The notes under the pieces are model-generated. The model was not told the DNA's origin. It made no database searches and saw only the letters and a program-made list of their open reading frames with translations. From Campylobacterota bacterium (lineage in GTDB: Bacteria; Campylobacterota; Campylobacteria; Campylobacterales; Sulfurimonadaceae), in the NCBI GenBank assembly GCA_034717975.1, contig JAYEMF010000106.1, forward strand, positions 12,966 through 35,807: DNA of 22,842 nucleotides, written 5' to 3'. This document shows, one piece after another, positions 2,601-17,121 of the stretch (position 1 is its first letter; each line of letters starts with the position of its first letter). Position numbers and translations under genes: made by a program.

Positions 2601-3106
2601 AAAAGCAGAAAGAGGCCTCCTCTAAAATCAGCGGCAAGTACTTTCTTCCTATTGTGCTTTTGATCTATCTCCTCTTCTACCTCTCAACACCGGAAGCGGC
2701 TGAAGAGGCATTTCAAAAAAGTATCCATATTCTGTTGAAGCTGCTTCCCATACTTATGGTCGTTATTCTCTTGCTGGGAACCTTTAATTACTTTTTCAGA
2801 CCCAGGGCGATCGCGAAGCATCTGGGTGAGGAGTCGGGAGTGCGGGGCTGGATGATCGCTGTCGTCGGCGGTATATTGAGCCATGGACCCTCCTTTGTCT
2901 GGTATCAGATGCTTTCGGATCTTCGGAGTCATGGGGCGAGGGATGGTCTGATCGTGACATTTATCTATGTAAGGGCCGTTAAACTGCCTTGGATGCCGGT
3001 GATGATCGACTATTTCGGATGGCTGTTTACCATGGTTGTCACACTCGCTCTGATCATAGCCGGTGTTGTGCAGGGGATGATCATGGACAGATTAGAGGTA
3101 CGCTAA
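2597..3106 (+). CDS. Permease, DUF318/ArsP_1-like (half-size, partner of previous gene)
   Basis: GTGA overlap with the previous gene; LGEESG...GILSHGP...WY motif; hydrophobic. Confidence 0.75.
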   Translation: MKKQKEASSKISGKYFLPIVLLIYLLFYLSTPEAAEEAFQKSIHILLKLLPILMVVILLLGTFNYFFRPRAIAKHLGEESGVRGWMIAVVGGILSHGPSFVWYQMLSDLRSHGARDGLIVTFIYVRAVKLPWMPVMIDYFGWLFTMVVTLALIIAGVVQGMIMDRLEVR

Positions 3107-3864
3107 AAATGTCCTTTGGTGTGTGAGAGGTTGGCCAGCAGTAAGAAGATGCCAAGCCCGATGATCAGAGCAGCGGCAAAAAACTCAAGCAGGTAGCCGT
3201 ATTTTCCAAAGGCGTTACCGCCGCGTTTTTGTACGCCTACCGCAAATATACCGGCAAGCGATATGGTCAGTCCCATTCCGATACTCATTACCAGTGCCGT
3301 GGCAATACCGGTGACAATATGCCCTAACGAAATGGCGAAAAGGGTGATGGTCATAACCCCGGGGCAGGGTACAATGCCGGCTGAAAAGGCTACGGCAAGG
3401 TCGCTTTTGTCTGAAACGCTCACCTCTTCATCTCTCTCTTTGCGATGCTTATAGGCTTCATAAACAAGATAGAGCCCGACGAGAATGATCAAAACCGCCG
3501 AGATGATCATGGAGAGATGTGCGATGTTATGGAATGTCTTGGTAAAAAGGGTCTCGATGAGGTAGTAGACAATGAAGGTGAGGAGCAGAGCCGAAGAGGC
3601 ATGGACAAGGGCGATCAGGTAGCCCATTTTGAACGCTTTTTTGAAACTGCCGCCCTGTTTCAGGAAATAGAATCCTACCAGTGCTTTACCGTGACCGGGT
3701 CCGGCGGCATGGATGACGCCGTAGAGGAAGGCAATGCCCAGGATGGTGATGGTTCCCCACAGGGCATCACCCTCAAGTTCTCTCAGGTTGCCGGAAACAA
3801 GGCTGTTTAATTTGTATTGCCATTGGGTAAGCAATCGAATAAAATCACTATAAAATTCACTCAT
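3103..3864 (-). CDS. Nickel/cobalt transporter, NicO/RcnA (ZevB-like) family
   Basis: HAAGPGHGK and GIVPCPG signature motifs, about 6 TM helices, no long His-rich loop. Confidence 0.85.
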   Translation of the reverse strand: MSEFYSDFIRLLTQWQYKLNSLVSGNLRELEGDALWGTITILGIAFLYGVIHAAGPGHGKALVGFYFLKQGGSFKKAFKMGYLIALVHASSALLLTFIVYYLIETLFTKTFHNIAHLSMIISAVLIILVGLYLVYEAYKHRKERDEEVSVSDKSDLAVAFSAGIVPCPGVMTITLFAISLGHIVTGIATALVMSIGMGLTISLAGIFAVGVQKRGGNAFGKYGYLLEFFAAALIIGLGIFLLLANLSHTKGHF

Positions 3865-4367
3865 TGAAGCTCCAGAACATAACCGAAGAAGAAGTCGCCG
3901 TCGAGCTTTTTGAGCCGATACGACTGTGTTGGGTTGGCTTTTTTGACAAACTCATCCTTGAGAACATAGGCGCTAAACATCTCCTCATCGTAAAATTTTA
4001 TGGCCGTTGTCCCTTCAGGCAGTTTCAGGGTAAAGTAGAAATTGACCTTGTTCTCTTCAATAGTCGCCATAAACGAATCGGAAAGCGGTGTCGGAAGCTT
4101 TCTGTTTTTGTTGTAAAAATAGGTGTAATACTCAAACGCTTCAAGGCCGGAGAAGCTCTCTTTATAGACCATCTCGCTCTCTTTTTCATTCAGTTTCCCA
4201 TTGTGGTCACGGTCATAGTCCATGATGAGCATCTGCGAGCTCATCTCGTCAAAGACCCACCTGATCGTGACACGCTCTTTGCCAACAGCCGGATAGACAT
4301 CGACAAAGCAGTGCGGGTGTGCTGAGAGTATGATGGATGATAGGAAAAACAGTATGAAACTACGCAT
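3861..4367 (-). CDS. DUF1007 family periplasmic protein (ZevA-like)
   Basis: Signal peptide then AHPH-x-FVD, W-x-FDEM-x-S and EF-hand-like DRDHNGKLNEKE; ATG at 4367 with AAGG RBS; ATGA overlap with the transporter gene. Confidence 0.85.
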   Translation of the reverse strand: MRSFILFFLSSIILSAHPHCFVDVYPAVGKERVTIRWVFDEMSSQMLIMDYDRDHNGKLNEKESEMVYKESFSGLEAFEYYTYFYNKNRKLPTPLSDSFMATIEENKVNFYFTLKLPEGTTAIKFYDEEMFSAYVLKDEFVKKANPTQSYRLKKLDGDFFFGYVLELQ

Positions 4368-4451
4368 CGAAACCTTATGGATAAACAATCATTTATATAC
4401 AAGCAAATGTCATACCCATATTTTACCATAGAATTAAATTAAACTAATAAT

Positions 4452-4480
4452 TATATTAAGTATAACTTATGTATAATATA
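4452..4480. promoter_or_regulatory. Candidate NikR-type operator (TATATTA-N15-TAATATA)
   Basis: Perfect 7-bp inverted arms 15 nt apart, matching the Helicobacter NikR TRWYA-N15-TRWYA pattern, upstream of the DUF1007/NicO pair. AT-rich background lowers significance. Confidence 0.45.
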
Positions 4481-4559
4481 TTATTAAAGTGTATTGGCAT
4501 CTCTATAATAGTCAGTATACTTGTGACAATTTACATATTACATAAAATAGAGTTTTCAG

Positions 4560-4646
4560 ATGAACATCACCCTTGCGTCAATCGCTACTATCCGTTCTCC
4601 CTTTTGTGACCTGGTCAATATGCCGGTGCAGCCAAAAGGCATATAA
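4560..4646 (+). pseudogene. trmO: 5' remnant of TrmO/TsaA tRNA methyltransferase (28 aa)
   Basis: MNITLASIATIRSPFCDLVNMPVQPKGI* resembles the TsaA/TrmO N-terminus (I-x-x-I-x-SPF...MP-x-QP); it stops 2 nt before the TauE gene. Confidence 0.65.
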
Positions 4647-4648
4647 CA

Positions 4649-5383
4649 TTGATTGAATACTTGCTCTATTTTTTACTGACACTCTTTTTATCTACCATCT
4701 TTGCCATAGCGGGACTGGGTTCTGCCGTGGCACTGGTTCCCGGTCTGAATATGGCCGGTCTTGCCTTTGACCTTTCACGGGCAAGCGGCCTCTTCGTCAA
4801 CTCCGTGACGACTATTACAACCAGTGGGTTAAATCTCAAAAAGAAGCTTTTTGATTTCAAGTTTGTAGCCCCTTTGGTCATCAGCTCCTCCATTTTTGCA
4901 TTAATCGGGGCTAAACTCTCTTTCCTGGTAGATACCGATACGCTTAAAACGATTTTCGCCTGTGTACTTTTTATCATCGCTTCGATGATCCTCTTTTTTA
5001 AAAAACCTGTCCGCCGGGATGGAGGCAGTTTGAACCGATCGATCTTGCTGATTGCCGGCTCTATCGGTGGAGTGTTTTCCGGATTTCTGGGCATAGGCGG
5101 CGGTTCGATCATCGCTCCGATACTGCTCTTATCCGGGTATGATGCGAAAAAAATCGCTATCGGTATCTCGTTTGTCATTCCCTTTTCATCTATCGTCGCT
5201 TTTACAAGTTACGCCAGTGCGATGGAGCTTGACTATACACTTTTGTCGGTAGTGGGTGCTGCTGCCTATATGGGTGGAATGGCTGGGAACTACATCCTGC
5301 ACTTTAAAGTCTCTTCTGCGATGATCAGAAAAATATTGGCGATCGCTCTGTACAGCATTGCCGTTAAAATGCTTTTAGGTTGA
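4649..5383 (+). CDS. Sulfite exporter TauE/SafE family membrane protein
   Basis: Two repeats with GLGSAVALVP and SGFLGIGGGSIIAP motifs, about 8 TM helices; TTG start. Confidence 0.85.
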   Translation: MIEYLLYFLLTLFLSTIFAIAGLGSAVALVPGLNMAGLAFDLSRASGLFVNSVTTITTSGLNLKKKLFDFKFVAPLVISSSIFALIGAKLSFLVDTDTLKTIFACVLFIIASMILFFKKPVRRDGGSLNRSILLIAGSIGGVFSGFLGIGGGSIIAPILLLSGYDAKKIAIGISFVIPFSSIVAFTSYASAMELDYTLLSVVGAAAYMGGMAGNYILHFKVSSAMIRKILAIALYSIAVKMLLG

Positions 5384-5447
5384 TCTATATCGATGACAAT
5401 GAATGAGAGCATAGATACAATACCGCGATAAAATTTAGGAGAAAAAG

Positions 5448-5597
5448 ATGGTCGATAAAGCCTGCAACAATGAAACATGTATGAAACGTGAGGAGTGCGC
5501 ACGCTATGAAGCGTGGCTCAAAGGTGACCAGAACTATAAAACGTTTAAAGGTAATGAGAAAAAAGGGTGCGGGCAGTTCATCCAAAAAGAGAAGTAG
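5448..5597 (+). CDS. Small four-cysteine hypothetical protein (49 aa)
   Basis: AGGAG RBS then ATG; MVDKACNNETCMKREECARYEAWLKGDQNYKTFKGNEKKGCGQFIQKEK*; shorter than any ORF in the supplied track. Confidence 0.7.
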   Translation: MVDKACNNETCMKREECARYEAWLKGDQNYKTFKGNEKKGCGQFIQKEK

Positions 5598-5660
5598 AGC
5601 TCATCCAGAGACTAAAGGGCACCTCTAAAATGTGAATGAGTGCCGTTTGTACCTCCTCTT

Positions 5661-6896
5661 TCACCCCTTGATGCCATCTGCACGAGGAGTTACTAAAAAC
5701 CCAAAAAACACCTTGATGTACAACATAAAAGGGATCGTCCAGACAATGGATGAGTAGAGGTAGAGTTCTGCCATATAACCTTCGAAAAATGGAATCAGAC
5801 CTCTCATAAGCGTCGCAATTATCATGAGCAGTACCATAAGGTGCGTGTAGATATTTGATGTCAGGTGCCGTCCTGTGTGAATCCAGCCAATGATGATCAT
5901 GATCATCAGATAAGCCAGTCCGAGTCCCCCGCCGGTAATAAAGTGCCTAAAGTGGTTTATTCCGTAAATATCATCATTTAACAGATCCCAGCCCATAAGT
6001 GCATAACCGGCACCCAACATGACAAAAATGGGGGCAAGGTAGAGTATATAGGGCTGATTCCAGATAAACTTCTCTTTCAGATTATAGTCACTTGTAATCG
6101 CTAGGATCGCAGCGCCGCTTGCCAGTCCCAACCAGCCTAAAGCGGAATTGTCAGGATAGAAAAACTCTACGATCGTAAAGGCTATGACACTGAAAACGGC
6201 GAGGTTTGTCAAAGGGGGTCGTGCAATGTAGATATCGTCTATCCCCTTGTCTTCCATCAGTTCATTGACTGCTTCCATATTGACGCGACGCATGGCAAGC
6301 AGGATAAGTACTACGACAGCACCCAGTGCAACTTTGAGGATAGACATGGCATCTGTCTCTGCCAGACCTGCCTGAGAGGCAAAAAACCAGCTTTCAAGTG
6401 CAAATATAGCTACAAGAATATACCCTAAAGAGGCGTGTCTCTGGAGCTTATCGAGCACAATATCTTTGGCAAACCAGATCAGCCAGCCCAGCATGGCAAG
6501 GTTTAAAACAGCGGCCAGATAGACACCCGTGATATCTATAAACCAAAAGCTGACCCGTCCGGCCACCCATAAGATCATGATCTGTTTGAGTCGCTTACCG
6601 ATAAAAGGGACCATACCCGGGAAAAGTTCGGGAAGCCCCGTAGTTAAAAACGCCATGACCCCTGCAGTCAAAATTCCAAAAAGCATCTCATAGACATGCC
6701 AGGTAAGCGTATCGTTCATAAACGGTATGCTTATTACATTGCTCCAGACCAATCCCCAAAGAACCATAGAGATGATCATATAGGGGGCTAGAAGTAAAAA
6801 GACCGGTCTGAACCCGTAAGCCAGGTAGGGCGGTACATCTTTTTCATCGGGGTAGTACAAGTAGTGATTGGTAGCGTGTAGTTTTTGCTCTTCCAT
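5661..6896 (-). CDS. nnrS: NnrS family membrane protein
   Basis: GFRPVFLL, WHVYEMLFG, AFLTTGLPE, HTGR and C-terminal PRADG motifs; about 12 TM helices. Confidence 0.9.
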   Translation of the reverse strand: MEEQKLHATNHYLYYPDEKDVPPYLAYGFRPVFLLLAPYMIISMVLWGLVWSNVISIPFMNDTLTWHVYEMLFGILTAGVMAFLTTGLPELFPGMVPFIGKRLKQIMILWVAGRVSFWFIDITGVYLAAVLNLAMLGWLIWFAKDIVLDKLQRHASLGYILVAIFALESWFFASQAGLAETDAMSILKVALGAVVVLILLAMRRVNMEAVNELMEDKGIDDIYIARPPLTNLAVFSVIAFTIVEFFYPDNSALGWLGLASGAAILAITSDYNLKEKFIWNQPYILYLAPIFVMLGAGYALMGWDLLNDDIYGINHFRHFITGGGLGLAYLMIMIIIGWIHTGRHLTSNIYTHLMVLLMIIATLMRGLIPFFEGYMAELYLYSSIVWTIPFMLYIKVFFGFLVTPRADGIKG

Positions 6897-9629: not shown

Positions 9630-11651
9630 TTAAAAACGGTAGGAGAGATCGAGTTTGATGTTGCGGCCGGGCGTCGCATAATCGAGCTCTTGCCAGGCAT
9701 ATGAGAGGTGGTCGTACGTTGTGGCGTCGAAGAGGTTTTCTGCGGCAACAGTAGCGCTGACACCCTGCTCTGTAATAATACCCAGGCGGATATCGGCCGT
9801 GGTATAGCCCGGTGTCTCTTTTTCACCCGTACCTGCTCTCTTTTGCCTGAGCGCACTTACTCCCGAGAGTTCGCTCCAGAACTCCTGGGTAAACAGATAG
9901 CCGGTGTAACGCACACCATAACGGATCTTTATCGGAGGAATCTGTGTCAGCGGCTTGTTATGCGTGATATCGTCGCCTCTGACAACCGAGAGTGATCCGA
10001 ACGTACTTACTTCGTCAGAAATAAAATACTCCCCGTCGGCTTCACCGCCATAAAGGCGTGCATCGGCAATATTTTGATAGAGAAAGCGGTACTCTGTCGG
10101 TGACGCCGCATCAGGATTACTGAGAATTTTTCGGATCATATCATCCACGCGGGTGTAAAAGAGGCTGAGCGATCCGATAAAGTTGCCGTTGCCGTAGCGC
10201 ACGCCTGCATCAAAATTCCAGCTCTTCTCGGGATTGAGGTTTGGGTTTCCGATATCCTGACCCGGACCATCGTGCGGACCGTAAAAGTAGCGCTCTATAA
10301 TGGTCGGTGAGCGAAATGCCCGTCCTACGTTGACAAAGAGAGTAAGGGGTTCGGCAGCTTTGTAGACGAGACCGATGCTCCCACTCAGGGCCGAGTCGCG
10401 ATCGAACTGCGCAGTAGTGATATAGTAGGGCGAGGGTGCCCCGTCAGTTTTTGCTTCAATAGTGTCGTAGCGAAGGCCAGCAGTCAGATTCAGCCGTTCA
10501 GCAGCGGCAAATTCATCTTGCAGATAGAGGCCGTAACCGGTACGCGCAGAGGGGGCCAGCACCGGTACGCCGTCAAAACCCGGTGCGGTCGGCAGATTCT
10601 TGATGGCCCGGCTTGAGTCAAGTGACTCGTTATAGTATTCGGCACCCGTCGTAAGACGGTGTGATTGGACGGGGGTAAGTACAAACTGAGCGCGCAGGGT
10701 ACGGGTGTCTTTGTCTACCTTGATATCAACCAGCCCATCGGGTTTCGGCTCGCGGATGCGGTGGCGGTTGTGTTCCTGCCAACTGGCCAGAAGTTCAAAA
10801 CGTTCCAATATATCGCTGTCGGGTTCATAGGCAATTTTGCCGTTGACCATAGTGTGCGTTTCATCTTTGTAGTAGTCGGATACAAAAGTTCGCGGTGCAG
10901 CGATGCCGATGTCGGCTTTACTCTGCCAGAGGTTGAGTTCCGTCGTCCAGTGATCGGTGAGGTAGTTACCCCCGGTCCAGAGTGTCGAGCCGTCATAATC
11001 GCTGAAGCGGATCTCTTCGTCGGGTGATTCAAGGTTGGAAGATTTTTTGTGGGTCCCCCCGGCATAGAGGTTGATATCGTCCATTCCGGCACTGATATGT
11101 GCTTTTTGCCTGAAGCCGTTGCCGTTGTTCTCAAATTGCAAGCCGACATCGCCTTCGACTCTCGTTTCGTCGCCTCGCTTTTTTGCGGCTTTTTTGGTGA
11201 TAAAGTTGACAACGCCGCCGATAGCGCCCGCACCGTAGAGTACCGAACCAGGTCCGCGTACGATCTCTACGCGTTCAATCTGTGCCGGATCGATAGAGAG
11301 GACATGGTTGCCTCCGGGGCGCTCATCGGAGAGGCGTACGCCATCAACCAGAACAAGTACCTGCTCATGCGAAAGGCCGCGGATGACGGGCATAATGCTT
11401 CCCGGACCGGCGCTGATGGCATCGACGCCCGGCGTATGGCGGAAAATATCGCCGATGGTGGCGACGCTCTTTTCAGCGAGCTCATCCGGGCCGATTACGG
11501 TGACCGGAACGGGCGCCTCTTCGATTTTGAGTGTTGGATTCTGGGTAGGCGTGATGGTTAGCGCTTCCATTGTATGGATCTGCGCGGCAGCAAGCGGTGA
11601 TGATACGGCCAGCGAAACGCCGGCCAGCCATGCCATGGATTTTATCTGCAT
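9630..11651 (-). CDS. TonB-dependent outer membrane receptor (possible metal-ion type)
   Basis: Signal peptide; plug motifs IRGL...VLVLVDG and IERVEIVRGPGSVLYG-x-GAIGGVVN; C-terminal ENLFD...PGRNIKLDLSYRF. Confidence 0.95.
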   Translation of the reverse strand: MQIKSMAWLAGVSLAVSSPLAAAQIHTMEALTITPTQNPTLKIEEAPVPVTVIGPDELAEKSVATIGDIFRHTPGVDAISAGPGSIMPVIRGLSHEQVLVLVDGVRLSDERPGGNHVLSIDPAQIERVEIVRGPGSVLYGAGAIGGVVNFITKKAAKKRGDETRVEGDVGLQFENNGNGFRQKAHISAGMDDINLYAGGTHKKSSNLESPDEEIRFSDYDGSTLWTGGNYLTDHWTTELNLWQSKADIGIAAPRTFVSDYYKDETHTMVNGKIAYEPDSDILERFELLASWQEHNRHRIREPKPDGLVDIKVDKDTRTLRAQFVLTPVQSHRLTTGAEYYNESLDSSRAIKNLPTAPGFDGVPVLAPSARTGYGLYLQDEFAAAERLNLTAGLRYDTIEAKTDGAPSPYYITTAQFDRDSALSGSIGLVYKAAEPLTLFVNVGRAFRSPTIIERYFYGPHDGPGQDIGNPNLNPEKSWNFDAGVRYGNGNFIGSLSLFYTRVDDMIRKILSNPDAASPTEYRFLYQNIADARLYGGEADGEYFISDEVSTFGSLSVVRGDDITHNKPLTQIPPIKIRYGVRYTGYLFTQEFWSELSGVSALRQKRAGTGEKETPGYTTADIRLGIITEQGVSATVAAENLFDATTYDHLSYAWQELDYATPGRNIKLDLSYRF

Positions 11652-11658
11652 AGTGGTT

Positions 11659-11749
11659 TCCTCTATAAGAAATTAGTACCAGGCCACACCTGTTTTGATG
11701 GTGCCTGTGATTTAAAAAATAGTCAATTGTTCTTCTTAGGTATAGAGAA
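11659..11749 (-). promoter_or_regulatory. Predicted SD-sequestering mRNA hairpin of the receptor gene
   Basis: mRNA UUCUCUAUA (11749-11741) is complementary to UAUAGAGGA (11667-11659, containing the SD); inner stem CAGGC/GCCUG at 11707-11680. Confidence 0.6.
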
Positions 11750-12116
11750 GTGTCGGTGGTGCGCGGGGGTTGGTAAAAAAGAGGGGTTTAGGCGAGGGGT
11801 GGTTTTTTCGTAAAGGATGATATCTGTCGCTTACAGTTACTTTTTCAGCACGGAAAATTGTTGGGATCTCAAAAGAGATGCCCTGTGCAAACAGTGTGAC
11901 AACACAGCTTGCTTCCTCTTTGGAGTCAGCGTGCAGAGCCGTTGGTTTGCCTTCTTCAGCGTGGAAGCTTTTGCCATGCAGCATGGCATGCAGATGGGGC
12001 GAGGTTGTCGCGATCTGCAGTACAAAGAGATAGGCTGAAAAGAGAACAATGATAAAGCTGAATGCAGGCGTCTTATGCCTTTTGCCGAAAAATAGCTGGT
12101 TTGTCATTACTGTCAT
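11736..12116 (-). CDS. DUF2946/CruR/CutF-like leader protein with C-terminal RAPP motif
   Basis: N-terminal hydrophobic helix, His cluster (HLHAMLH..H..H), single Cys (SCVVTLFAQG), Pro-rich tail ending PRAPPTLLYT; directly upstream of a TonB-dependent receptor. Confidence 0.75.
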   Translation of the reverse strand: MTVMTNQLFFGKRHKTPAFSFIIVLFSAYLFVLQIATTSPHLHAMLHGKSFHAEEGKPTALHADSKEEASCVVTLFAQGISFEIPTIFRAEKVTVSDRYHPLRKNHPSPKPLFFTNPRAPPTLLYT

Positions 12117-12125
12117 ACTACTGCA

Positions 12126-12539
12126 TTACACAAACATAAACTTTGCCAGCATAACCACCACCATCATCAGTGAAAAAAAGAGATAATGAAAGGTTATTGA
12201 AAACCATTTTACCTCTTTCATGCGCTGCATGATCTGCGGAACGAAATAAAACGTTATCCCCAATACCAGACCGACAGTGATTTTGATATAGAGCAGCATG
12301 TTTGCATCGCCGTGAAGATGCGGCATCAGTATATAGCCGCCGCTGAGCAGTAAGACAGCGACATTGACCATCATGATCTTCCGCGCTCTCATGCCGATGA
12401 GCTTGTCGATCTTCTGATAGGTCGAGGCATCAAAATGTGGAGTGAGCGACGGCACCACGAACGTTCTGAAAAAGACGGTACTGATGAACAGTATTGCAGC
12501 CATAAGATGGATGGTCTTTATCAGTGTATATATTTCCAA
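12126..12539 (-). CDS. Four-TM membrane protein, CopD-like
   Basis: IHLMAAILF in TM1, LLSG, IKI and FHY...MLAKFMF; TTG start with AAGGG RBS. Confidence 0.65.
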   Translation of the reverse strand: MEIYTLIKTIHLMAAILFISTVFFRTFVVPSLTPHFDASTYQKIDKLIGMRARKIMMVNVAVLLLSGGYILMPHLHGDANMLLYIKITVGLVLGITFYFVPQIMQRMKEVKWFSITFHYLFFSLMMVVVMLAKFMFV

Positions 12540-12589
12540 TGTTTACCCTTTCTTTCTTTCTGAATTTCTTTACAGTAGTGTATCTTAAT

Positions 12590-12604
12590 TGATATTAATT
12601 ATCA
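12590..12604. promoter_or_regulatory. Fur-type box
   Basis: TGATATT-A-ATTATCA, 14/15 to consensus. Confidence 0.75.
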
Positions 12605-12652
12605 TTAATATCGGATTCGTTTCAGAAAAAACACTTTAAATTTAAATATATA

Positions 12653-12667
12653 TGATAACGATTATCA
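12653..12667. promoter_or_regulatory. Fur-type box
   Basis: TGATAAC-G-ATTATCA, 14/15 to consensus. Confidence 0.78.
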
Positions 12668-12704
12668 ATATAATATATGCTTAAGGTTGAATAGACTACT
12701 ATAC

Positions 12705-12719
12705 TGATATCAATTATCA
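12705..12719. promoter_or_regulatory. Fur-type box
   Basis: TGATATC-A-ATTATCA, 13/15 to consensus, between a TACTAT -10-like hexamer and an AAGGA RBS. Confidence 0.7.
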
Positions 12720-12732
12720 AAAAGGATAAAAA

Positions 12733-12798
12733 ATGAAACGAAATTGGGAATTTGACCGAGTCTATAAACTTACTGCCGTCAATGGCTGCAACTATTAG
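12733..12798 (+). CDS. Putative 21-aa peptide MKRNWEFDRVYKLTAVNGCNY
   Basis: AAAGGA RBS correctly spaced; its TAG overlaps the AGGAGG RBS of the DUF2325 gene. Confidence 0.5.
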   Translation: MKRNWEFDRVYKLTAVNGCNY

Positions 12799-12807
12799 GA
12801 GGAAGTT

Positions 12808-13140
12808 ATGTCAATTCTAATCATAGGCGGCGATAAGATCGGCAGGATCGAAAATCTTGTGAAGTCTCTGGGAGCTACCAAAACGGCGCATTGGGACAGC
12901 CGAAAGAACTCAACCTCGCATAAACAGATACCTTCCGATACGGACGGCATCATTATGCTGACCGATTTTTTAAAGCACAATACGATGACGCATTTTAAAA
13001 AGGTAGCCAAAAAAGATGAGATCCCTGTGATGTTTGTACGCAGAGGGACCCGGCATGTGGCAACAAAATTTGCCAAACTGACAGAGATCTGCCATGAGCA
13101 ATGGAAAAACAGAATATTGAAAGGGGCTAAAGATGTTTGA
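12808..13140 (+). CDS. DUF2325 domain protein
   Basis: MSILIIGGD...HW-x-x-RK...IP-x-DTD-x-IIMLTDFL-x-HN...K-x-x-AKK-x-x-IP pattern; AGGAGG RBS. Confidence 0.85.
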   Translation: MSILIIGGDKIGRIENLVKSLGATKTAHWDSRKNSTSHKQIPSDTDGIIMLTDFLKHNTMTHFKKVAKKDEIPVMFVRRGTRHVATKFAKLTEICHEQWKNRILKGAKDV

Positions 13141-13189
13141 GATCAGCAACAAAAAGTCGATTGGAAAAATCGGCGGATGTACGTGTTAA
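13133..13189 (+). CDS. Putative 18-aa peptide MFEISNKKSIGKIGGCTC
   Basis: AAGGGG RBS inside the 3' end of DUF2325; ATG overlaps its last codons; ends in GGCTC. Confidence 0.5.
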   Translation: MFEISNKKSIGKIGGCTC

Positions 13190-13198
13190 AGAGCCGTC

Positions 13199-13258
13199 AT
13201 GCGTAAAATAGGATTTTACGCCAGCTCAACGGGAAATACGGAAAGTATTAGAATCTGA
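13199..13258 (+). pseudogene. fldA: 5' remnant of flavodoxin (19 aa)
   Basis: MRKIGFYASSTGNTESIRI* carries the flavodoxin FMN phosphate loop FY-x-S-x-TGNTE, then stops. Confidence 0.7.
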
Positions 13259-13288
13259 ACAGAGTAAATATTAAGGATAAAACTTACG

Positions 13289-13996
13289 ATGTATTTGTTT
13301 TTAAAACATGAGAGAGCTTACTCCTCTCACTATTTTTTACTGCTTTTGAGCATTTTGATGGTCTCGATGCTGCTCTATGTCGCCATCAAGCGAACAGAAC
13401 ATATAACGCTGACTCCTCCCATGCCGCCGGTTATTGAGAAAAGTGAGCGCAGGGTTGCCATTACTTTGAGTGCACCTCCTGTTCAGAAACAGCAGCCTAA
13501 ACCCATTGAAAAAGTAGTACCAAAACCTGTTGTTAAAAAAGTGGAAAAAACAGTTGAGCCGGTTGTCAAACCAAAATCTCTTCCGGAGCCGACAGTGGCA
13601 GAAATACCGATAGAAACGCTTGTGGAAGCGCAGCCGGTGGCGCAAGAGCCTCTGCCGGTCACTGTTCCTCAACCGCCTTTGCCGCCAAAACCGCTGTTTG
13701 ATGCTCAAATGAAATCCGAATTTATTGCCGGGCTTTATGCTGCACTTGAAGCCAATAAGGTGTATCCGAAAATGGCAAAGCGCCGCAAGTTAAGCGGCAC
13801 GGCACACATACATTTTACGCTGCATAAAGATGGGACGATCGAAGATGTCTATCTGGATGAGAGCTGCGGACACCGCCTGCTCGACAAAGCTGCGCTGAAA
13901 CTGGTAAAAGTGCTCGGCAGCTACCAGGCGATTCCTGATGCGGTCAGTCTTGTTGCTCTGGATCTGCATATCCCTGTCGCCTATAAACATCATTAA
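13289..13996 (+). CDS. tonB: Energy transducer TonB
   Basis: N-terminal TM, Pro/Lys/Glu-rich linker, YP-x-x-AKRR...G...F...DG...SCGH-x-LLDKAA C-terminal domain. Confidence 0.9.
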
Positions 13997-14004
13997 GGAA
14001 AAAA

Positions 14005-14514
14005 GTGAATTTACAAAACTATATTGATCAGGGCGGCATGATCGTCCTTATTTTAATCGGTATGCTGGGCATTGGTTCTGTGATCATGCTGTGGAAATTT
14101 CTAACCATAGGCTTTATCCGTTTCAGAGGCGGTCATCTGTGTCGTGAATGCCATAAAAAGTTGCCGCCGCAAAGCGACATAGCCATGGTGGAGCTTGTAG
14201 TGCATGATGCTATGCATACCATAGAAAAGGGGCTTAGTACAGTCAAGATAATTGCTACCATAGCACCGTTGCTTGGGCTTCTGGGTACGGTTATCGGTAT
14301 CTTTACGGCTTTTCAGGGCATCTCCGAACATGGTCTCGGGGATCCCAGCTATTTTGCGGAAGGGATCTCGATGGCGATGATCACGACCATTGCCGGGCTC
14401 ATCGTCGCTATACCGCATTATGTCGGTTATAACTACATCGTCGGGATGATGGACAAACTCGAACTGGCTTTCACGCAGGAGCTTTATACCGAGCTAAGGA
14501 AGAGTGATGCGTAA
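14005..14514 (+). CDS. exbB: MotA/TolQ/ExbB proton channel protein
   Basis: [17 protein letters not shown] and GIS-x-AMITT-x-AGL-x-VAIP; short form; GTG start with AAGGA RBS. Confidence 0.92.
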
Positions 14515-14902
14515 AGCGCGTGAAACGATCGCGCCGGACCTGACGCCCGTCATTGACATCGTGTTTATCCTGCTGATCTTTTTTATGGTCACCTCCGTCT
14601 TTAAAAAAGAGGATGTCGCCCTGGCGCTGAACCTGCCGGAGTTGCATGCCGCTGCCAAGCCTACCGATAAGAAAACAGTCACGATCGAGCTGGGTGAAGA
14701 TGCCCTGGCTGTTGATGGAAAAACCTATACGTTTGAAGAGACAGGGACTCTGTTCGCAGGGTATGAAAAAGAAACGCTTCTGTCGGTACGCATTGATAAA
14801 AGCGTGCCTTATGAGCGAATTATGAAGCTGTTTGATCAGTTGCAGACACATCAGTTAACATCATTTTCGCTGATAGCCAATGAGGCGGAAGAGCAGAAGT
14901 AA
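14507..14902 (+). CDS. exbD: Biopolymer transporter ExbD
   Basis: [23 protein letters not shown] and IDKSVPY motifs. Confidence 0.93.
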
Positions 14903-14921
14903 TACCTTAAACAATCAGGAG

Positions 14922-14980
14922 TGATGGGCATCGATGAAAGGGCTGTTACATAGCTTTTTCATAGGTGCCTTGATGCATCA
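14922..14980 (+). other. Long imperfect RNA hairpin between exbD and the second receptor gene
   Basis: GGCATC-G-ATGAAAGGGCT pairs with AGCTTTTTCAT-A-GGTGCC (with G-U pairs); flanking TGATG/CATCA. Confidence 0.5.
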
Positions 14981-14991
14981 TTATTATTTAA

Positions 14992-15006
14992 TGATAATAA
15001 TTATTA
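14992..15006. promoter_or_regulatory. Fur-type box
   Basis: TGATAAT-A-ATTATTA, 14/15 to consensus, just before the AAGGA RBS of the receptor gene. Confidence 0.72.
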
Positions 15007-15021
15007 TTATAAGGAACATAG

Positions 15022-17121
15022 GTGAAGAAAATCATATTAAGCAGCGCGTTAGCGCTTATACTGGCTGGCAGGACCATGGCGGCAGAGGGGATGAAGGCGA
15101 TCGAAGTCGTCAATATCGCGACGAAAACGGAAAAAAGTATTGACGGAGTGGCCGCTACGGTTGATGTCATTACCCAGAAAGATATCGAAAAGATGGGGGC
15201 AGAAAGCCTGAAGGAGATTATCGAAAAGACACCGGGGCTCACGATGCAGTATGGAACGTTCCCAAGCTCATCTTCAAAGAGTAAATCTTCTATTGCTATT
15301 CGTGGTATGGGGGCAAATGGGACGCTGTTTCTACTTGATGGCAGAAGACTCGCGGGAGAAGTAAAAAACCCTTATGACTTAGACCGTATCCCAGCTTCCA
15401 TTATCCAGAGAATCGAAATAGTAAAAGGTCCAATGAGTTCGCTTTACGGTGCTGATGCTGTTGGCGGGGTTATAAACATCATCACGAAAAGACCAGCGGA
15501 TGAGATGAAGATCGATGTAGGTGCCAGATATGGTGCGAATAAGGATGGCGATGCACAAAATGCGAATCTCTCTTTAAGTGTCCAGGGTGAAAACGAAGGG
15601 TTTGGATACAGCGCTTACGCAGGCTTTACAACAACTGACCCATATACACAAAAAGAAGTTGCGGATGTTTATGCAAAAACACCGGGAGGAAATGTAAAAC
15701 CGTCTGCTCATCCAAATCCCGCTATCCAAAACATACAAGACTACTATGATGTAGACACAACATATCGTGAAGACAGCACCATCTATACGTTAGGTACTCG
15801 ACTCTCATATGAGTTTACATCTGATTTAATTGCCGGGATGGATGTGAACTATTTCAAAGAGGAGCGAGACGGTATTTATATAGGGTATATTCACCCAGCT
15901 ACAACCGGGGGTGGACCGGTTCCGATCTATAACAATCCAGTAAACTCGCACGATGAAAATAATCGTCTGGATTTAAGTGCAGACATAGAGTATGTGCCAA
16001 CTGATGACCTGTTGATCAAAGCCCGTATCTACAATAGCAATTATGAAAAACGAAATACAACCACTGCCAGAAATTGGGCCGATATGGGTTATGCCAATGA
16101 AGATGCATCTGCAAATGCCGCTATGAACGCTGATGTCGATATCACAGTTTATGAAGCATCTGCTACATACTTTGCAGTTGAGAGCCATCTCCTTACCGGT
16201 GGGGCTGAGTACCGGGATGAGAGAAGAAAGTCTTCCGTGTTTAACAACAATGTCAGCATTACCGAGAAAAAAGTCGACTATACATCTGTCTACCTTCAAG
16301 ATGAATGGGAAGTAACTGAAACATTCAACACAATTCTTGGTGCGAGGTATGAAGATATCAGCAATGCCGAGGACAAGCCCACATTTCGTGCAGGCGGTAT
16401 CTATGCTTTTGATGAGCTGGCAAAATTGAGAGCAAACTTTGCGCAGGGCTTTCGTACACCGGATATACGAGAGATGTACATAAATATGAATACGCCCAAT
16501 GGCCCTCAACGGGGTGCTGATGTTATGGGGTATGATCTAAAACCGGAATCAACAGATGCCTTTGAAATTGGGCTTGGTGGCCGTAATGCCAAATTCAGCT
16601 ATGACCTTGCAGTTTTTTATAACAAAATTGAAAACAAAATTGAGCAGGTTCAAAATGGCGCCATCACAACATTTGAAAATGTCTCAGATGCAAATACAAA
16701 AGGTATGGAGCTGTCTCTTAACTACCAACTGCTGGATAATTTAGGCAGTACGTTCTTTTGGACTGAGCTAAGAACTGAAAATGAAGAGACTAAAAAAGAT
16801 CTTGAGTTTAACCCGGAGAGAACTTTGATGCTTAGTTTTGATTATCAAGTCACAAAAGCGTTAAATCTCGGAGTAATTGGTAAGTACATTGGTGAGCAGC
16901 GCTATACAGAGGTCATAAACAGAGGTGCTCCAACTCAGAGTGCAGATCCTGATGCTAAAACAGATGCCTTTAGTATTGTCGATCTCACTGCTTCTTATGA
17001 TATCACGGAAGCATTTAACCTTTATGGCGGTATCAATAATATTTTTGATGAAAAAGTCGATGATGTCCTCGGCTCCAATGTCGGGGTTTTCTACTTCGCA
17101 GGGATCAGAGCGAGCTTCTAA
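15022..17121 (+). CDS. TonB-dependent outer membrane receptor (CirA/FepA-like)
   Basis: Signal peptide; IRGMG...TLFLLDGRR, IQRIEIVKGPMSSLYGADAVGGVINIITK, GFRTP, LKPE, NNIFD, terminal Phe. Confidence 0.95.
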   Translation: MKKIILSSALALILAGRTMAAEGMKAIEVVNIATKTEKSIDGVAATVDVITQKDIEKMGAESLKEIIEKTPGLTMQYGTFPSSSSKSKSSIAIRGMGANGTLFLLDGRRLAGEVKNPYDLDRIPASIIQRIEIVKGPMSSLYGADAVGGVINIITKRPADEMKIDVGARYGANKDGDAQNANLSLSVQGENEGFGYSAYAGFTTTDPYTQKEVADVYAKTPGGNVKPSAHPNPAIQNIQDYYDVDTTYREDSTIYTLGTRLSYEFTSDLIAGMDVNYFKEERDGIYIGYIHPATTGGGPVPIYNNPVNSHDENNRLDLSADIEYVPTDDLLIKARIYNSNYEKRNTTTARNWADMGYANEDASANAAMNADVDITVYEASATYFAVESHLLTGGAEYRDERRKSSVFNNNVSITEKKVDYTSVYLQDEWEVTETFNTILGARYEDISNAEDKPTFRAGGIYAFDELAKLRANFAQGFRTPDIREMYINMNTPNGPQRGADVMGYDLKPESTDAFEIGLGGRNAKFSYDLAVFYNKIENKIEQVQNGAITTFENVSDANTKGMELSLNYQLLDNLGSTFFWTELRTENEETKKDLEFNPERTLMLSFDYQVTKALNLGVIGKYIGEQRYTEVINRGAPTQSADPDAKTDAFSIVDLTASYDITEAFNLYGGINNIFDEKVDDVLGSNVGVFYFAGIRASF

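Follow-up and report, generated by a model that had tools for sequence, protein, structure and literature searches.

We analysed a 22,842-nucleotide stretch of the genome of a Campylobacterota bacterium (contig JAYEMF010000106.1; this whole stretch is called the window below), in which a small open reading frame (ORF) ends shortly upstream of a gene for a TonB-dependent receptor. The small ORF, referred to here as the leader, carries near its end the tetrapeptide Arg-Ala-Pro-Pro (RAPP). We consider here whether it belongs to the ribosome-arrest leaders and whether its last codons might hold the receptor gene's Shine-Dalgarno (SD) sequence in an RNA stem. All features of the leader-receptor locus lie on the minus strand of the window, and they are collected in Table 1 together with one group of codons from related loci.

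Table 1. Features of the leader-receptor locus in the window, and the D-P-P-Q codons of four related loci
Feature	Positions	Strand	Remarks
TonB-dependent receptor gene, 673 aa	9630-11651	-	Pfam matches to Plug and beta-barrel
UAUAGAGGA, includes receptor SD GAGGA (11663-11659)	11659-11667	-	GAGGA 7 nt before AUG at 11651
Repeat fragment like a miniature inverted-repeat transposable element (MITE), 58 nt	11674-11731	-	fills most of the predicted hairpin loop, carries the inner stem (about 11707-11680)
AGAAG, strand of the predicted second helix	11732-11736	-	partner UUUCU (11672-11668) in minimum free energy (MFE) structures
Leader ORF, 126 aa	11736-12116	-	ends NPRAPPTLLYT*; 123 aa if the start is the second ATG (12107)
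Putative anti-SD UUCUCUAUA	11741-11749	-	begins 4 nt 3' of the last Pro codon; spans +11 to +19, counted from the first base in the P site
C-rich, G-poor tract, candidate rut-like (Rho utilization) site	11743-11820	-	35 C and 5 G in 78 nt; last ~26 codons and arrest site
RAPP codons CGC GCA CCA CCG	11754-11765	-	residues 118-121 of 126, with five more residues ahead of the stop
Cys71 codon TGT	11904-11906	-	sole Cys of the leader; heads CVVTLFAQG
SPHLHAMLH codons	11976-12002	-	residues 39-47; S39, P40, H43 and H47 invariant in the 8-sequence alignment A2
Hydrophobic segment codons	12009-12065	-	residues 18-36; single, N-terminal; Kyte-Doolittle 19-aa window mean 2.29
Gene for 137-aa integral membrane protein	12126-12539	-	weak DUF2269 match, E 0.0027
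D-P-P-Q codons, L003	2774-2788
D-P-P-Q codons, L004	956-970
D-P-P-Q codons, L008	1789-1803
D-P-P-Q codons, L012	1876-1890

A conserved leader in front of TonB-dependent receptors

After the RAPP codons the leader mRNA continues with ACA CUU CUC UAU ACC UAA, the stop codon occupying 11738-11736. Between Cys71 and Arg118, the first residue of RAPP, there are 46 residues, and with this single Cys (C71) the leader lacks a CXXC copper-binding motif. Residues 18-36 are a probable export signal or membrane anchor, judged by hydropathy alone. No SD sequence was found ahead of either candidate leader ATG (12107-12128), and the first ATG stands 9 nt past the stop codon of the gene upstream; the lack of an own SD and the 9-nt gap suggest that leader translation is coupled to this gene. 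As the 137-aa membrane-protein gene precedes it on the same strand, the leader is not the first gene.

Common databases are silent about the leader protein. It has no Pfam or NCBIfam match (in Pfam not even at E <= 10), a search of 5.8 billion proteins recovered only the protein itself, no match was found in the genomes of 40 relatives, nor with a profile in 400 further genomes of the phylum, and an Rfam scan of the window gave no family. An exhaustive phmmer scan, in contrast to these searches, returned six weak relatives, together with a 450-aa repeat protein (P0002) that was dropped as spurious. With a profile of eight sequences at least 231 proteins were found at E <= 0.001, and 121 of the family proteins were analysed for motif statistics. 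The C-terminal motif is QAPP in 82 of these, RAPP in 19, QGPP in 10 and RDPP in 6, with another motif or none in 4; in 117 of the 121 a motif of the form [RQ][AGD]PP stands 1-6 residues from the C-terminal end. An SPxLHxxxH-type motif is present in 118/121 proteins and CxxC in 1/121. It needs to be mentioned that the profile was built from motif-bearing sequences, and the motif frequency is thus partly circular. The fixed distance between the Cys of C[AV]V[TS]L and the terminal motif is free of this circularity: it amounts to 48 residues in 92 proteins and 46 in 22, that is, 46 or 48 in 114/121.

When members were compared individually with Pfam, DUF2946 was matched by 67 of 117 at E <= 1, the best value being 1.8e-4; no other family was matched by more than 13. 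The window leader itself does not reach the gathering score of DUF2946 (PF11162; 23.7 bits), and its genome has no match to this family at E <= 1. By this per-member scan, the leader family is remotely related to DUF2946.

The position of the leader is conserved as well. The closest relatives of the receptor (54-57% identity) were found in four Campylobacterota loci from metagenome-assembled genomes, of which L003 and L004 have a homologous leader directly upstream, L005 has another small ORF and L002 has none. Further scans added L007, L008 and L012, and in all six Campylobacterota loci (the window, L003, L004, L007, L008 and L012) the leader is followed by the orthologous receptor gene. The scans for related loci were made with the narrower alignments A3, A4 and A7, the 8-sequence alignment A2 being too diverse; L009 and L010 failed the motif filter and were left out, and L011 was left out of the locus comparison. 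In Verrucomicrobiota, 28 of 41 loci and a further 4 of 12 contain a leader that passed the motif filter, each leader being followed by an ORF of ~690-770 aa, and the downstream proteins sampled were TonB-dependent receptors in eight cases out of eight. The preliminary description of this DNA had read the small ORF as a regulatory leader, and conservation of the family strongly supports this view. Judged from its sequence, the leader is real and is a remote member of the kind represented by the published leaders CruR and CutF, to which we return below.

Two further observations concern the variety of such ORFs. The small ORF in front of the orthologous receptor in L005 (2576-2914, 112 aa) contains CQVC and ends HAPPLV, with neither SPxLHxxxH nor CxVxL; lacking the family motifs, it was not counted in the family, and it may be an independent or a much-diverged arrest leader. 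The Verrucomicrobiota loci (L014-L067) form a large branch with QAPP, QGPP, HAPP or RGPP, in which a second hydrophobic segment begins at the conserved Cys. In this branch the leader lies 110-166 nt upstream of receptors that have SD-less starts and C-rich leaders.

Predicted pairing between the leader end and the receptor SD

According to the preliminary description, a nine-base element shortly after RAPP is able to pair with a nine-base element containing the receptor SD. The positions of both elements, the 4-nt offset from RAPP and the distance of 7 nt between the SD and the AUG are as it gave them. UUCUCUAUA and UAUAGAGGA form 9 bp, namely eight Watson-Crick pairs and one G-U, and this complementarity was verified. 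The predicted MFE structure of 11780-11640 includes the 9-bp helix, the AGAAG/UUUCU helix and an inner stem around 11707-11680, and in this fold the SD is paired, not free. A partition function computed for 11765-11629 gives each GAGGA base a probability of 0.76-0.91 of being paired with 11749-11745. With the 5' end of the folded RNA placed at 11765, 11800, 11900 or 12116, the mean unpaired probability of GAGGA is 0.07, 0.22, 0.08 and 0.09, respectively, so that pairing of the SD is robust in three of the four fold contexts, including the one with the whole leader. The trait that characterizes CutF, an anti-SD stem shielding the SD of the next gene, is thus present in silico.

We compared the receptor SD with those of other genes of the same genome, using a crude set of 964 genes (ORFs of at least 200 codons with an SD core before the ATG). 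The computed accessibility of the receptor SD is 0.048, and 7.4% of 598 sampled genes (mean 0.42) have a value as low or lower; in other words, it is less accessible than the SD of 92.6% of them. Within the leader, the zone that a stalled ribosome would occupy contains the best complement of the SD, and only 1.0% of the other 20-nt windows of the leader and intergenic region are as good.

Would a stalled ribosome open such a stem? For CruR, the toeprint reported in PMC12992588 shows the two Pro codons of RAPP in the P site (first codon) and the A site (second codon). By analogy, the arrested ribosome on the window leader is predicted to have its P site occupied by CCA (11759-11757) and its A site by CCG. 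We therefore numbered the mRNA from 11759 as +1, forced it to be single-stranded up to a given boundary, and then computed the accessibility of GAGGA. In the mRNA channel of the ribosome the helicase site lies at ~+11 and the edge of the footprint at ~+15. With the RNA unpaired through +10, the mean accessibility of GAGGA is 0.04 and the stem is intact; it is 0.26 with the boundary at +11, 0.40 at +12 and 0.40-0.43 at +13 to +16, which is about the genome mean of 0.42. The unconstrained value of 0.07 thus rises to 0.40-0.43 once the footprint extends to +12 or farther, and a terminating ribosome gives a comparable accessibility of 0.38. From these boundary results it follows that a stalled ribosome would reach no farther than the 5' half of the anti-SD, where the partners of GGA are located. 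In this model, the adequacy of SD opening depends on two or three nucleotides of geometry, and in the opened state a local hairpin with the start-codon region still occupies part of the SD. The earlier proposal that stalling would melt the anti-SD is thus compatible with the geometry if the channel reaches +12 or beyond, but not if it ends at +10.

It had also been proposed that further pairings could close one long hairpin. The AGAAG/UUUCU helix and the inner stem are indeed found in the MFE structure, but the inner stem turned out to lie in a fragment of a genomic repeat. The segment 11674-11731 is 93% identical over 58 nt to C65:14385-14442, and inverted partial copies occur in contigs C65 and C77; the parent element measures ~270-320 bp and has inverted ends of ~34 nt each with a small palindrome (C65:14385-14660 and C77:19349-19625). 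Extra metagenome contigs pile up or break exactly at 11674-11731. The hairpin is then, as read from the sequence, a short two-part stem with a loop filled by a self-folding repeat fragment. Because the inner stem is part of a genomic repeat, it is no longer evidence of design, and a functional outer stem is still compatible with it. Cold-seep metagenome contigs from a second and a third study (X5 and X6) are ~90-97% identical to parts of 11400-12600, and on one cold-seep contig the start of the receptor and the repeat fragment are joined as they are in the window.

Besides the intact stem at +10 and the residual hairpin in the opened state, a number of results weigh against a functional mask. 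The whole fold of 11780-11640 has a free energy of -20.3 kcal/mol; shuffled sequences average -18.8 (z -0.45), and of 200 such sequences 66 fold as stably. In 35 of 963 genes (3.6%), the equally distant 20-nt segment can form a duplex of -9.7 kcal/mol or better with the SD of that gene, and 20% of genes have such a duplex somewhere in -130 to -25. Among the 3,456 synonymous encodings of TLLYT*, 7.3% pair equally well (12.3% when weighted by codon usage), and the synonymous-site test of the anti-SD was not significant. The repeat fragment makes up 58 of the 84 intergenic bases. Taken together, the pairing is only modestly better than chance.

Comparison of the loci adds to the same side. The best anti-SD falls in the stall zone in two of the six Campylobacterota loci, the window and L004. 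In L004, the SD GAGGAU is predicted to be fully paired (unpaired probability 0.00) with AUCCUC inside the D-P-P codons, and 2.5% of other windows are as good as its stall zone; the register (GAUCCUC) and the sequence differ from those in the window. In the remaining loci, the stall zone is matched by 12.7% (L003), 81% (L007), 28% (L008) and 41% (L012) of other windows. Two loci of six in the lowest 2.5% are more than chance expects. Still, L004 is not an example independent of coding constraint, because CCU-CCN Pro-Pro codons are inherently anti-SD-like. By their intergenic regions the six loci divide into a short and a long class that resist alignment; an alignment was obtained for the three long regions alone (182-202 nt), and in their consensus fold the SD is unpaired. 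The 16 placeable receptor starts of Verrucomicrobiota have pyrimidine-rich leaders and show, by reading, no SD core in -16 to -5. As judged from these loci, the anti-SD is not a family trait. Closer to the window, a related-strain contig (X5, record 9) covers 11542-11738 with five differences and ends before the anti-SD.

As a separate observation, the D-P-P-Q codons GAT CCT CCC CAA are nucleotide-identical in four loci, where the leader proteins have diverged considerably in the rest of their sequence. The CCUCC within these codons is a 16S-type anti-SD sequence.

The preliminary description had taken the stem for independent RNA-level support for the leader. We do not retain this claim: the statistics are marginal, the searches gave no close relative of the intergenic region from which covariation could be read, the anti-SD recurs in one of five homologous loci, the inner stem is derived from a repeat, and a Rho-based explanation competes with it.

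A C-rich tract and competing explanations

The last codons of the leader are rich in C and poor in G. Over the tract listed in Table 1, the excess of C over G is 30, and the 99.99th percentile among 64,572 windows of the genome is 26. In the last 27 codons this excess is 32, as compared to 22.1 +/- 3.7 in synonymous recodings, and is reached by 0.5% of them (p about 0.005). The tract is a statistically stronger synonymous-site signal than the anti-SD. A peak of C over G centred on the arrest motif is found in 6/6 Campylobacterota loci (L018, L028 and L038, whose receptor start is unclear, were left out of this analysis). Rho is encoded in the genome (672.8 bits, cut-off 509), no intrinsic terminator was found in 11500-12900, and promoter-like matches in the same region are at the shuffle level (4 vs 3.5). 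An internal receptor promoter in the intergenic region was considered in a by-eye look only and is unsupported.

These observations would suit an output of the CruR type. In such a scenario, ribosomes stalled on RAPP and those queued behind them would cover a Rho loading site and polymerase would read into the receptor gene; upon relief of the arrest, Rho would terminate transcription before or early in the receptor gene, and the stem would be incidental or of minor importance. A precedent exists, as CruR is reported to control a TonB-dependent transporter via Rho, with the rut site at the C>G bubble in cruR (PMC9426467). The C excess of the tract goes beyond what the amino acids require, and the intergenic regions of three related loci are long (182-202 nt); yet about two thirds of the C excess is due to Pro/Thr/His-rich coding, Rho sites are not callable from sequence alone, and the intergenic region of the window is merely 84 nt long. 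Moreover, the anti-SD physically forms part of the C/U-rich tract, and thus the signals for the SD mask and for Rho are not independent of each other. We regard Rho termination as the principal output as a rather doubtful explanation, although a serious one.

It is also conceivable that there is no RNA switch in cis at all. The 9-bp match would then be due to chance, or a by-product of a U/C-rich tail and a repeat insertion, and the small protein would act as a protein, for instance as a membrane-anchored periplasmic metal-binding partner in uptake, with the C-terminal motif serving this role. The marginal comparisons with chance, the non-conservation of the anti-SD among loci and the repeat fragment sitting in the loop all fit this idea, as do a leader that is not first in its operon and has no SD of its own, and conserved His and Cys residues that would suit a metallochaperone. 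On the other hand, the fixed spacing of 46 or 48 residues between Cys and [RQ][AGD]PP, the location of this motif 1-6 residues from the stop, and its occurrence in two phyla, always before a receptor, are hallmarks of an arrest leader and not of a folded domain. RAPP and RGPP are reported to be the most depleted tetrapeptides of bacterial proteomes except in such leaders (PMC12992588), and the DUF2946 matches of 67 among 117 family members point in the same direction. We thus find a purely protein-level role quite unlikely.

The explanation that we tentatively prefer is an SD mask that functions either alone or together with a Rho component, to which we would assign a probability of about 0.4. 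Under this model, the leader would be a ribosome-arrest leader of the metal-sensor type acting in cis with the TonB-dependent receptor gene. In free mRNA, the receptor SD GAGGA would be held in the stem by UUCUC(UAUA) of the last leader codons. A ribosome at the leader end, either stalled on RAPP with its channel reaching +12 to +16 or terminating at UAA, would remove the anti-SD strand, and the SD would then be exposed to about the genome-average level. Arrest would prolong the open time, and after release the stem would re-form. The duration of the arrest would be set by ligand binding to the nascent region of His43, His47 and Cys71, which should be placed just outside the exit tunnel because 46 residues separate it from the arrest site. 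A Rho component may act in parallel. The analysis shows the sequences, the computed pairing, the conservation of the family and the gene order; the arrest, its dependence on a ligand and the sign of this dependence, as well as the limitation of receptor translation by the stem, are what we infer within this model.

Related arrest leaders and the significance of the locus

The receptor encoded at the locus has its best NCBIfam match in a heme/hemoglobin subfamily (301 bits, below the cut-off of 317), and the copper-receptor model reaches 137, its cut-off being 472. Further along the operon, the receptor gene is followed by genes for an NMT1/SsuA-like binding protein, a permease, an ABC ATPase and NnrS. 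The window is a metal-uptake island: on the minus strand (3103-6896) the ABC importer of the receptor is followed by NnrS, NicO-type and DUF1007 genes, and a divergent group on the plus strand (12808-17121) comprises a DUF2325 gene, TonB-ExbB-ExbD and a second TonB-dependent receptor.

CruR (Bp2923) of Bordetella pertussis is a DUF2946 protein encoded before the TonB-dependent transporter BfrG in the order cruR-bfrG-bp2921 (Roy et al. 2022, PMC9426467). Its CXXC and RAPP motifs are reported to be 45 residues apart, and copper to relieve the arrest at RAPP, which permits Rho-dependent termination (PMC9426467). In PMC12992588, CruR is described as arresting in vitro, RDPP as partly permissive, and RAPP/RGPP upstream ORFs with signal sequences as enriched before TonB-dependent receptors. 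The window leader resembles CruR in being a small, probably exported protein with RAPP a few residues from its C-terminus and a TonB-dependent transporter gene directly downstream, in a metal-ligand residue with constant spacing (45 residues in CruR, 46 in the window), in the C>G-rich RNA at its 3' end, and in the subthreshold DUF2946 matches of its relatives. Unlike CruR with its CXXC, it has one Cys and HxxxH and no Pfam match, it is not the first gene, and the intergenic region is 84 nt long as compared to 162 nt. By NCBIfam the receptor is not of the copper type, and Campylobacterota are absent from the phyla named in PMC9426467. Finally, the demonstrated output of CruR is Rho termination and not SD masking.

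The second relative is CutF of Rhodobacter capsulatus (cutFOG), a DUF2946-like protein described by Ozturk et al. as stalling at a C-terminal proline motif, whereupon a stem-loop with the anti-SD CTTC, which shields the cutO SD, is melted (PMC9973294, 10.1101/2025.02.05.636593). According to the same reports, there are also CutF-like clusters in which the ligands are Cys, His or a mixture of both and the neighbours are TonB-like. The mechanism considered here thus amounts to the published CutF mechanism on a CruR-like gene layout. Both the sensor type (exported, DUF2946-like, with a C-terminal proline stall motif) and the stem-loop whose anti-SD shields the next SD (CTTC in CutF, UUCUC in the window) are alike. 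The ligand and stall motifs are different, as CutF uses CxxxC and PPP, and its target is a multicopper oxidase in copper-induced detoxification rather than an uptake receptor. Moreover, the CutF stem-loop was tested by mutation, whereas the stem in the window is a prediction.

A more distant likeness exists to SecM-secA of Escherichia coli and to the RAPP arrest peptides ApdA/ApdP (PMC12992588), which share the C-terminal arrest motif R-A-(G/P)-P, with Pro-tRNA in the A site there. In the case of SecM, stalling of the ribosome leads to the opening of a stem in which the downstream SD is masked. SecM, ApdA and ApdP monitor Sec/YidC activity, precede genes of the secretion machinery and have no metal-ligand motif, unlike the window leader, downstream of which there is no Sec/YidC pathway gene but a TonB-dependent receptor gene.

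One may speculate further that the family is an unannotated His2-Cys branch of arrest leaders in Campylobacterota and Verrucomicrobiota (with RAPP, RDPP, QAPP and QGPP) which senses a signal other than copper, that its two-helix QAPP forms may sense membrane insertion of the segment starting at Cys, and that in the locus described here one stall would both unmask the SD and cover the Rho site. The odds of this whole combination seem low to us. The branch might already be included in the member lists published with PMC9426467 and PMC9973294.

Arrest-peptide leaders that couple metal sensing to uptake or detoxification are a recent discovery (CruR in 2022, CutF in 2023-2025), with a single example known for each RNA output. 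The locus described here extends the principle to a branch that Pfam does not recognize, with a His/His/Cys set, to Campylobacterota and Verrucomicrobiota, and to receptors that are not of the copper type. Since a predicted SD mask and a C-rich, Rho-type tract occur in one short leader, it also offers a compact test case for the choice between outputs. As for annotation, 'hypothetical proteins' of about 120 aa encoded before TonB receptors are better read as regulatory leaders.

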